The notes beneath the pieces were generated by a model. The model had not been told where the DNA came from, did not search any database, and saw only the letters and a list, made by a program, of their open reading frames with translations. The translations under genes and the position numbers were made by a program. DNA of 64,000 nt from an uncultured delta proteobacterium (GTDB taxonomy: Bacteria; Myxococcota; Myxococcia; Myxococcales; Myxococcaceae), in assembly GCA_963796055.1 (NCBI GenBank), contig CAWCKH010000003.1, forward strand, positions 192,001-256,000, written 5' to 3'. Of the stretch, positions 50,896-53,533 are shown piece after piece. Position 1 is the stretch's first letter; each line of letters begins with the position of its first letter.

Positions 50896-51609
50896 CTACC
50901 GGGTCGAGCCTGCGCGGAGACGCAGCGCCCCGTAGACCCCCGCCTCGGCATAGGTCGGAACTGCGCTCGGTCGGCAGCCCCAGCCGTTCATCACCAGGGT
51001 GAGGCGGAGCTCGCCACGGAACCTGAGCCGCGACGCCGGCACGGCGTTCCGCGCATCGAGCACTCCGTGGGTCAGTCGCCCGTCGAACATCGCCAGCCGG
51101 TTCGGTCTCGGAGCGACCAGATCCGCCTGCAGCGGGAGCGGGACCAGTGCTGGGTGCCGTGCGTCCGGCGGCTGGGCGGTGACCGCGAGCGCCCCGCCCC
51201 GGACCCGGTTGAGGAACAGCACCGAGGAGACGCGCGGATGGCGGTCCGGACCGCCTGCCTGCGCCAGCCGCTCGTCCCGGTCGCGGTGGAAGTCGACCCG
51301 CACGTCGTGGGTCCACATCCGGGAGAGCCACCACTCGACTCCCCGCGCGCCTCGCCCGCGGAAACGGTTCCCGAGTGCCACGAGGGCCAGCTCGGGCACG
51401 GCGACCGGAGTCGCGTCGAGGTCGAACCAGAAGGTGGTCTGGTAGGTCCTCCGGACTCCCTCGGAGCCGAGACGGCGGACACTCCGCTGCAGCCTCCGGA
51501 ACAGCGCCAGGGGGAGTGCCGGCTCGATGAGCTCGACCAGTCGCTCCGGTGCCGGTGGACGGGTCCGCCGTCGGCGGGTGCCTGCCCCGGTCGCGCTGGC
51601 CACGGTCAT
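50896..51609 (-). CDS. 2OG-Fe(II) oxygenase superfamily protein
   Basis: FHRD (HxD), SSVLFLN..GG, PRPNRLAMFDGRLTHGV (distal His), RLTL (2OG-binding Arg). Confidence 0.75.
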   Translation of the reverse strand: MTVASATGAGTRRRRTRPPAPERLVELIEPALPLALFRRLQRSVRRLGSEGVRRTYQTTFWFDLDATPVAVPELALVALGNRFRGRGARGVEWWLSRMWTHDVRVDFHRDRDERLAQAGGPDRHPRVSSVLFLNRVRGGALAVTAQPPDARHPALVPLPLQADLVAPRPNRLAMFDGRLTHGVLDARNAVPASRLRFRGELRLTLVMNGWGCRPSAVPTYAEAGVYGALRLRAGSTR

Positions 51610-52433
51610 CCGCCGGACCTACCGAACTGCGGATGACCGAGGACCGCCCGTTCCAGCTCCGGGGTCAGCTCGGCGAGTCCATGCGGTGCCCTTGCGCTCG
51701 AACGGCGCCAGCGCTGTAGCCACCTCTCCCCGAGCGGTGCGGTGAGGACTGCGGGTCCCAAGCTGGCCACGGTGGTTTCCTTCTTCACCGCCGCGGCGAC
51801 CCCTGCGCCCACCCAGAAGCCCGCGAGCAGGAGCGTGACCCGGGTCCGCGTCGATGCGCTGTACGTCGACAGTAGCCCACCCGGGGCGAGGACCTGCCTG
51901 AACCGGCGAAGGGCCTGGATGGTCCACAGCTCCGGGTTGGCCTCGGGCGAGAAGGGATCGAGGCAGATGACGTCCTGGGGCGCGTCGAGGCGGCCCAGTG
52001 CCTCCAGCGCATCGCCCTCGATCCAGGTCCAGCGGAGTCCGGGCGCCTCGACCGAGCGGCCGGCAAGCAGCGCGTCGAGCAGCGCGCGGTGAGCGGCCTG
52101 CACCGGAAAGCGCGCCGGGTCCCCGAGGGCGAGCTGAAGCGCCCCCTCGTCCTTCTCGAGGCTGGTCAGCGCGAGCATCCGCCCCTGCACCCGCCGCGCG
52201 CAGTCGATCACCGCCAGCGCGTTGGTCGCCGCGCCGAGACCCACGTCCAGCACCCGCACCGGCCCTGCCTCGCCCGAGGAGAGCCGTTCCGCCAGCCGGG
52301 TCTGCTCCACGTAGAGCAGCTCGGCCTCACGCCGGGGGCCTAGGCCGGGGTGCATGATCTCCCCCGAGCGACGATCGCGGATGCTGATTTCGCCGTTGCC
52401 CAGCACCACCGACTCGAAGTCGTTCAGCCCCAC
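51606..52433 (-). CDS. Stand-alone MnmC(m)/MnmD-like SAM-dependent methyltransferase
   Basis: [18 protein letters not shown] (motif I), [21 protein letters not shown]...R..L..AGF. Confidence 0.85.
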
Positions 52434-53533
52434 AGCGCGCGCATCTCGTCGGCCAGCGCGGCGAAGCGCCCGGCGAGGATGGCCTCCCGGATCCGGCCCA
52501 TCAGCACCTGGTAGTGGCGGAGGTTGTGGATGGAGAGGAGCCGGCTCCCCAGCGCGTGCTTTCCCCGCATCAGGTGGTGCACGTAGGCCCGACCGTGCCG
52601 CCGGCACGTGAAGCAGTCACAGGTCGGATCGAGCGGAACCTCCTCCAGCCGGTGCACCATCCGCGTGATCCGCACCAGTCCCTGGAAGGTGTAGGCGTAG
52701 CCCTGCTGGGCCATCTTGGTGGGGATGATGCAGTCGAACATGTCGACTCCCCGTTCGACCGCCTCGGCGAGGTCCAGCGGGGTCCCCACTCCCATCAGGT
52801 AGCGCGGCCGGTCCACCGGAAGCTGCCCGGCGACCCGGAGGGTCATCGCGTCCCGGTGCGGCTTCTCCTCGCCCACCGCCAGCCCACCGATGGCGAACCC
52901 GTGGAACGGCAGCCGGGTGAGGAAGTCCACGCTCCGGTCGCGGAGCTCGGGGTGGATGCCGCCCTGGACGATGCCGAAGAGCGCCTGGCCGGTGTCGCGC
53001 CCCTGTGCGGCCTCCAGGCTCCGGACCGCCCAGCGGTGCGTCCGCTCCATCGCCTCCCGCGCCGGCTCGAGCTCCGCCCGAGCGTCGTGGACCACATCGA
53101 GCACCATCATGATGTCCGAGCCCAGCGCCTGCTGCATGGCGATGCTGCTCTCGGGCGAGAGCAGCTGGCGGCTGTTGTCGTGGAAGCTCCGGAAGTGCGC
53201 GCCCCGCTCGGTGATCTCCCGGTCCTCGGGGAGGCTGAAGATCTGGTAGCCGCCGGAATCGGTGAGCACGCACCCGTCCCACCCCATGAAGCGGTGGATG
53301 CCGCCCAGCCGCTCGAAGACCTCCCGCCCGGGCCGCAGCATCAGGTGGTAGGTGTTCCCCAGGAGGATGCGCGCCCCCGCCTCCCCCGCCTCGTCCACGC
53401 TGACGTGCCGGAAGGCGGCGTGCGTCGCCACCGGCATGAAGACCGGCGTCGGCACGTCGCCGCGGCGGGTGTGGAGCACGCCGGCCCGGGCCAGCCCGAC
53501 CGTCCGCTCGAGGGTGAATCGCAGGGTGCTCAC
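52424..53533 (-). CDS. tgt: tRNA-guanine transglycosylase, divergent paralog-like
   Basis: [46 protein letters not shown], Zn site CDCFTC...HN. Confidence 0.9.

Follow-up and report, generated by a model that had tools for sequence, protein, structure and literature searches.

Why would a myxobacterium that already carries ordinary queuosine genes keep a second tRNA-guanine transglycosylase (Tgt), and why would that gene run directly into one for a methyltransferase of the MnmC type? Bacterial Tgt has so far been associated with a single product, found at four tRNAs. The question is raised by a stretch of 64,000 nucleotides (the window) on contig CAWCKH010000003.1 of assembly GCA_963796055.1, from an uncultured delta proteobacterium of the Myxococcaceae, in which a divergent tgt gene (tgt2), a methyltransferase gene (MTase) and an oxygenase gene lie in a row (Table 1). 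A preliminary description of the window had taken the three as a candidate pathway for methylating 7-aminomethyl-7-deazaguanine (preQ1). We found that tgt2 is a paralogue of the genome's queuosine Tgt, that it is linked and frequently fused to the MTase, that both enzymes have intact active-site motifs, and that the pair occurs independently of MnmE and MnmG. The pair is a real, widespread variant of known enzymes and, judged from the sequences, probably points to an undescribed RNA modification. Of the three-gene pathway, the tgt2/MTase core, which is conserved and often fused, held up in every genomic check that the description had put forward, and the inclusion of the oxygenase did not hold up.

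The source genome (G000; 98.53% complete, seven contigs, no N) contains two TGT genes, tgt2 and a copy in the order queA-tgt-secD-secF. The latter follows immediately after queA and precedes secD and secF (G000:C3:394-400 kb; yajC was not separately identified), and the QueC, QueF and QueG proteins score above their cut-offs, QueD and QueE being outside the search. The canonical tgt and queA that the preliminary description had suggested looking for are therefore present elsewhere in the genome. The tgt2 product is itself a clear member of the family (PF01702, 449 bits; TIGR00430, 424.7 against a cut-off of 306.75) with about 50% identity to the queA-linked Tgt, and the named relatives nearest to it (92-95% identity) carry the labels Myxococcaceae or delta proteobacterium. 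In a tree, a long, fully supported branch split 14 queA-type myxobacterial Tgts from 55 tgt2 or fusion rows, which places the gene, already called divergent, in a group apart from the queA-linked Tgt. As the tree is a quick version with 69 of 208 rows, a midpoint root and no outside Tgt, it shows separation and not origin. Near the canonical copy, secD (G000:C3:395529-397428) is apparently split over two frames near 396770, probably by an assembly indel. A second, divergent QueA-family gene (L004, G000:C4:1337860-1338894, 149.7 bits) is located away from the queuosine genes and adjoins an XRE-like regulator and a sigma-factor-like gene.

The tgt2/MTase pair is widely conserved and often fused, as the preliminary description had proposed to check. 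We compared a panel of 61 genomes, the source genome and 60 relatives, in which tgt2-type copies were assigned by position and score; the MTase was found in 39 and a tgt2-type second copy in 40. All 39 MTase genomes carried tgt2, within 250 nt of the MTase in 37 of them and at 0.8 kb and 9.7 kb in one each, and a single one of the 40 tgt2 genomes had no MTase. Among the best 80 of at least 551 tgt2 loci, the MTase lay directly downstream in 66, being adjacent in 39 and in the same frame without a stop in 27; one same-frame case (L038) is a frameshift artefact, leaving 26 fusions. The MTase was further off in one more locus, and the flank was too short in five. Seen from the methyltransferase, 92 of the 93 longer homologues were fusions of TGT and PF05430, under names from Myxococcota, Oligoflexia, Opitutaceae, Betaproteobacteria and Leptospira, and the single other case was a radical SAM-MnmC2 fusion. 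At least two tgt matches were present in 32 of 33 more distant genomes behind selected loci, and QueA in 55 of 56 genomes tested; the one genome missing both a second tgt and QueA was a metagenome-assembled genome (MAG) of 3.8 Mb. One of the 33 (G091, locus L083) is unpublished; it contributes a single row, and none of the conclusions depends on it by itself. Apart from synteny at the level of genus or family, no further conserved neighbours were observed among the 30 neighbour clusters that recurred most often across 115 loci, under a crude filter for open reading frames (ORFs). The pair is also carried by Myxococcus xanthus (locus L050), which is genetically tractable. One genome (G021) has both a stand-alone tgt2-type copy and a fast-evolving fused copy.

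The MTase is the only PF05430 gene in the source genome and scored 62.7 bits with that profile (cut-off 22), whereas with NF033855, the MnmC2 model, it reached 85.1 against a cut-off of 136. Its Protein Data Bank (PDB) matches were only MnmC2 or MnmC proteins, the best being A. aeolicus MnmC2 (E 2e-36 by profile). We mapped onto it the residues that bind S-adenosylmethionine (SAM) or act in catalysis, as named for MnmC2 (PMC3527978), and found GxGxxxN (SAM motif I, with N71), E93, D141, the catalytic DxF of motif IV (D159, F161) and Y191, the Tyr that stacks on the substrate, all kept; these are the equivalents, in the same class I SAM fold, of the MnmC2 GxGxxxN, E133, D174, D193-x-F195 and Y225. 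Across the MTase rows, N71 and D159 were each kept in 172 of 173, F161 in 167 and Y191 in 171. The earlier label of an MnmC-like enzyme agrees with the family and the active-site motifs. Besides its score below the NF033855 cut-off, the MTase differs from MnmC2 by a C-terminal tail (WLxRWxRS...HPQF) conserved in the Tgt-linked clade. MnmC2 has a narrow pocket for the aminomethyl adduct (PMC3527978), and the group that fits this pocket is the same one that preQ1 carries. The model of a fused relative (P0024) had a predicted local distance difference test score (pLDDT) of 93 and a predicted template modelling score (pTM) of 0.69; with this pTM and a disordered linker (pLDDT <50 at 373-386), no fixed domain arrangement is predicted for the fusion. 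The top 50 Foldseek matches of this model were TGT entries only, so the fold of the MTase rests on sequence and profile matches.

MnmC2 methylates 5-aminomethyl-(2-thio)uridine (nm5(s2)U), the product of MnmE and MnmG, and the aminomethyl groups on which enzymes of the MnmC2 type act are bound to tRNA (PMC3527978). In the source genome the best MnmG score was 31 bits against a cut-off of 525, MnmE gave no match at 1e-30, and the MnmG proteins of relatives gave no tblastn match anywhere. In relatives, mnmE-mnmG sit between jag and rsmG-parA; at this site in the source genome, on a gap-free contig of 3.66 Mb, rnpA, yidC, jag, rsmG, parA and parB are present, with an ABC-permease-like gene in place of mnmE/mnmG and rsmG inverted (G000:C4:1356400-1365300). 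MnmA is present, and MnmM, MnmL/YtqA and Elp3 were not found in the genome. With MnmE and MnmG missing and these other enzymes not found, a check on mnmEG that had been suggested earlier leaves the MTase with no known source of nm5s2U. Because the MTase was kept after this loss, the source genome offers a natural control.

The same pattern was observed in the panel. The MTase occurred with MnmE or MnmG in 22 genomes and without either in 17, MnmE/MnmG occurred without the MTase in 11, and 11 genomes had neither, two partial GTPase matches not being counted as MnmE. The 17 comprised 12 genomes of the source genus and five of two other families, and 11 of them were at least 92% complete. Among the 33 more distant tgt2 genomes, whose completeness is unknown, MnmG was not found in 15. 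The distribution of the MTase tracks tgt2, not MnmEG. We also considered tgt2 and the MTase as a replacement for MnmEG, and this was ruled out, as 22 of the 39 MTase genomes have both and 11 genomes have neither. Loss of mnmE/mnmG is common to 12 of 13 genomes of the genus and to several other families, and with Elp3 also not found, the U34 tRNAs of the source genome (Lys, Glu, Gln, Arg, Gly, Leu) have no known route to C5 modification. In an MnmG-bearing MAG labelled Spirochaetes, a second PF05430 gene apart from the Tgt fusion (G085:C78:6917-7141) is a candidate true MnmC2.

Residue comparisons, numbered by alignment to Z. mobilis Tgt, covered 99 locus rows and 88 fusion rows that partly overlap. 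Tgt2 keeps D92 and D267, the catalytic Asp pair (D102 and D280 in Z. mobilis), together with D146, Q190, G217, L218, A219, V220, E222, M247 and the ligands of the Cys3His zinc site. Asp102, Asp156, Gly230, Ala232, Val233, Met260 and Asp280 were invariant in all rows of both sets, Gln203 and the zinc ligands were nearly so, and position 235 was Glu or Asp. The stem-binding residues of E. coli Tgt, K285, K292 and R320 (PMC13416341), correspond to R288, R295 and R323 in tgt2, positions that were mostly basic in the locus rows. With its catalytic, guanine-pocket, zinc and stem-binding residues kept, Tgt2 appears able to act on a guanine within an RNA stem-loop. It resembles bacterial Tgt (Z. mobilis 1efz/1q2r, E. 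coli 10fa/10fb) in all these features and in scoring above the TIGR00430 cut-off, and the model of the fused relative matches the fold with a template modelling (TM) score of 0.95 on the target; it differs in being a second copy, away from queA and tied to a methyltransferase.

Differences from bacterial Tgt were also found in the sequence of Tgt2, where V147/V148 replace E157/C158, F117 replaces H127, K273 replaces R286 and Q276 replaces R289. Across the clade, E157 is changed to Val, Gln or His and H127 to Phe, Tyr or Pro, both next to the base pocket. Arg286 and Arg289 occurred together in all 14 queA-type Tgts and in the E. coli and Z. mobilis enzymes, and in only one of 187 tgt2-clade rows. 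We take these two arginines to be the U35 contacts in the Z. mobilis RNA complex. A requirement of Tgt for U33-G34-U35 has been stated (PMC4425180). Of the pair of residues linked to preQ1 specificity, Cys158 and Val233, the second is kept, and position 158 is Val in tgt2 and its genus (11 of the 99 locus rows) and Cys in the other 88 and in all 88 fusions; C158V, considered as a mark of the whole tgt2 clade, was rejected as confined to the source genus.

Taken together, these features suggest a two-enzyme RNA-modification module beside the ordinary queuosine pathway. Tgt2 would excise guanine from an RNA stem-loop and insert preQ1 supplied by the genome's own Que enzymes, as its intact catalytic, guanine-pocket and stem-binding residues suggest. 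The MTase, in view of its MnmC2 active site and its linkage to tgt2, would then methylate the 7-aminomethyl nitrogen to give 7-(methylaminomethyl)-7-deazaguanosine (N-methyl-preQ1), which would cap the amine otherwise extended by QueA; in an alternative order, the free base would be methylated first and then inserted. The proposed base is the same as mdPreQ1, the N-methylated preQ1 that is made in phage DNA with DpdM (PMC10516641), and this counts in favour of the proposal. We judge the insertion of preQ1 into RNA by Tgt2 and its N-methylation by the MTase to stand about evenly between right and wrong. With less confidence, the target may lie outside the tRNAs with GUN anticodons: since Arg286 and Arg289, presumably the U35 contacts, are lost across the clade, a G34 tRNA without U35, or another hairpin, would be more likely than the four GUN tRNAs. 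Candidate G34 tRNAs in the genome are those for Ala, Pro, Val, Gly, Ile, Ser, Phe, Leu, Cys and Thr. The full version of the proposal, a second deazaguanine pathway of Myxobacteria and scattered other phyla in which a re-targeted Tgt would put preQ1 into a non-GUN tRNA or other RNA and a recruited MnmC2-type enzyme would convert it to N-methyl-preQ1, we regard as tentative and somewhat doubtful.

Several observations weigh against the methylated-preQ1 proposal. The Val of tgt2 at the Cys158 position is a change that weakens preQ1 use in Z. mobilis Tgt, where it raises Km(preQ1) from 0.9 to 16 µM (PMC3660597), although Cys is present in 88 of the 99 clade rows. The queA-linked myxobacterial Tgts have Tyr or Phe at position 231 in 14 of 14 cases and Ser232 instead of Ala in nine of them (L001 at G000:C3:397920-399050; L122-L134), whereas Tgt2 retains the textbook Leu-Ala-Val; gene order is the only ground for assuming which of the two copies serves the GUN tRNAs. 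Eight of the 80 tgt2 loci had no MTase nearby although the flank was sufficient, and some genomes have an extra tgt2-type copy lacking an MTase (L102, L172, L173, L135, L136, L137). The MnmEG-less MTase genomes are kin and represent about three lineages, so we offer no statistic on them. In the 22 of 39 MTase genomes with MnmE/MnmG, there is usually no strong PF05430 match besides the MTase, which could therefore double as MnmC2. Finally, no report of N-methyl-preQ1 in RNA was found in the literature covered, most subscription journals being outside the search.

Among the alternatives, the one that survives best retains the coupling of the two enzymes and assigns them other chemistry: Tgt2 would insert a different amine-bearing guanine-like base, or act on a nucleic acid other than tRNA, and the MTase would methylate the product. 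The clade-wide changes near the base pocket (E157, H127) and in the RNA-reading helix (R286, R289), together with Val158 in the genus, would be expected from such a switch, and Tgt paralogues have changed substrate before, as in the DpdA-type enzymes (PMC5699537). However, the preQ1-type pocket (L231, A232, V233, E235/D) and the stem-binding residues R288, R295 and R323 are kept in Tgt2, the genes for preQ1 synthesis are present, and no extra biosynthetic or DNA-related gene was recognised in the 30 recurrent neighbour clusters, judged from translations. We consider other chemistry unlikely.

It is quite unlikely that the MTase is an ordinary MnmC2 that converts nm5s2U to mnm5s2U and that tgt2 is a spare queuosine Tgt, the two being clustered and fused only because both act at position 34. 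The A. aeolicus enzyme as the closest structure, the full set of active-site residues and the position as sole PF05430 gene in the genome, and usually the sole strong one in MnmEG-positive relatives, would agree with this explanation, as would the database labels, which name tgt2-linked MTases MnmC or MnmD. The substrate, however, has no known source in the source genome, and MnmE and MnmG are missing in 16 other MTase genomes of the panel as well. The frequent failure to find MnmG among the distant tgt2 genomes (15 of 33, of unknown completeness), the 11 MnmEG-positive genomes that have no such MTase, the score under the MnmC2 cut-off, and a distribution that follows tgt2 and not mnmEG argue against it further.

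Handling of the free base is very unlikely. Here no stable RNA mark would be built; the MTase would methylate free or released preQ1, as a sink, a signal or a small-molecule product, and Tgt2 would strip preQ1 or queuine from tRNA or put guanine back in its place. Relaxed RNA-reading residues and the fused model, which has a disordered linker and no fixed domain arrangement, leave room for such a role, and Val158 disfavours preQ1 without affecting guanine (PMC3660597). On the other hand, MnmC2-type enzymes act on aminomethyl groups bound to tRNA (PMC3527978), no transporter or tailoring gene was recognised among the 30 recurrent neighbour clusters, and most members of the clade retain Cys158.

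The preliminary description of the third gene as a 2-oxoglutarate (2OG)-Fe(II) oxygenase is supported. The gene gave no match with Pfam or NCBIfam, and a sequence search of the PDB returned a chance match only, but H108-x-D110...H181...R202, the HxD...H triad and the 2OG-binding Arg, was invariant in 20 of 20 aligned homologues, and its ESM Atlas neighbours fall in 2OG-FeII_Oxy_3 (12% of one cluster, 95% of another). The top Foldseek matches of its model (pLDDT 86.7) were protein prolyl hydroxylases, P. putida prolyl-4-hydroxylase (P4H, 4j25) and PHD2, which share the double-stranded beta-helix fold (E about 1e-8, TM about 0.5-0.6) and the triad and are only 13-21% identical; no AlkB-type enzyme was among the fold matches listed. 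The oxygenase was found in 38 of the 61 genomes, 33 of them with the MTase: within 0.9 kb in 11, all of the source genus, split over two contigs in one more of that genus, and unlinked in the 21 of other genera. It was not found in six of the 39 MTase genomes, was present in five genomes without the MTase, and lay near only three of the 80 tgt2 loci, all 92-95% identical to the source locus; its neighbours varied in seven loci of other genera. In part of the genus an alpha/beta-hydrolase-like gene lies between MTase and oxygenase (L010, L011, L014, L015, L016, L036), and L009 retains a 3' remnant of it. The oxygenase is probably a genus-specific bystander and not part of the module. That it hydroxylates or demethylates a methyl-preQ1 product is highly improbable, despite the ATGA translational coupling at the source locus, the short distance in the source genus and the Val158 carried by that same genus, because the protein is prolyl-hydroxylase-like and adjacent in the source genus only, where the hydrolase-like gene or its remnant in part intervenes.

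Comparison with known systems showed that TGT-MnmC2 fusions have been named once, in Jaroch et al., 'Alternate routes to mnm5s2U synthesis in Gram-positive bacteria' (bioRxiv 10.1101/2023.12.21.572861). Those fusions combine PF01702 with MnmC2/COG4121 in the same order, and relatives of the source genes are such fusions; they come from genomes chosen for MnmA/E/G, and the portions of the preprint covered show no test of the fusion. The source locus, in contrast, has two separate genes, its Tgt is an additional paralogue, and the genome lacks MnmE/G. The earlier statement that no characterised pathway has this composition therefore stands as far as function is concerned, no report of a function for the pair having been found with most subscription journals outside the search, and needs amending in that the fusion had already been listed. 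The portions covered of a 2026 review (PMC13602947) likewise contain no passage on the pair or on N-methyl-preQ1 in RNA. Phage DpdA2 and DpdM (PMC10516641) offer a parallel in another polymer, with a transglycosylase for the insertion of preQ1 and a methyltransferase for its N-methylation. DpdM, however, is a DUF3109 metal-binding protein with a CxxxCxxCC motif, whereas the MTase is a PF05430 Rossmann protein without the motif, and DpdA acts on DNA, whereas Tgt2 shares about half its residues with the genome's tRNA Tgt. No dpd or DNA-metabolism genes were recognised in the 30 neighbour clusters, again from translations.

The source genome adds a case in which the housekeeping explanation for the MTase fails, and it removes the oxygenase from the pathway. 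If the full version of the proposal is true, N-methyl-preQ1 would be a new RNA nucleoside, the RNA counterpart of phage mdPreQ1 but the work of an unrelated methyltransferase, and the rule confining bacterial deazaguanines to G34 of the Tyr, His, Asn and Asp tRNAs would be broken. Thousands of database labels of the kind 'tgt' and 'MnmC/MnmD' may be wrong for the tgt2/MTase clade, and a Tgt with altered sequence recognition could widen the tools for RNA labelling.

Table 1 Genes of the tgt2 locus and its flanks, in window coordinates.
Feature	Position	Strand	Description	Basis
tgt2	52424..53533	-	divergent tRNA-guanine transglycosylase, 369 aa, GTG start	ORF, family profiles
MTase	51606..52433	-	MnmC2/DUF752-like class I SAM-dependent N-methyltransferase, 275 aa, GTG start	
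Oxygenase	50896..51609	-	2OG-Fe(II) oxygenase-fold protein, prolyl-4-hydroxylase-like, 237 aa, ATG start	
Hsp20 gene	50080..50859	+	convergent flank, outside module	
DEAD/DUF3516 helicase gene	53606..56110	+	divergent flank, 72 bp from tgt2 start	

The arrangement of the locus agrees with what had been described, three co-oriented genes with overlapping ends and no queA, yajC or secD beside tgt2. All three ORFs are on the minus strand, tgt2 and the MTase overlapping by 10 nt (52424-52433) and the MTase and the oxygenase by ATGA (51606-51609), and the flanks are the Hsp20 and helicase genes. Codon-position GC is gene-like for tgt2, the MTase and the oxygenase, with third-position values (GC3) of 0.95, 0.87 and 0.86, respectively. 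The helicase gene does not figure among the 30 neighbour clusters that recurred most often. A search of 50700-53800 found neither sigma-70 promoter-like nor terminator-like sites, a result that is uninformative for a G+C-rich genome. Elsewhere in the window, ARAGORN predicted a tRNA-SeC gene at 28854-28949.

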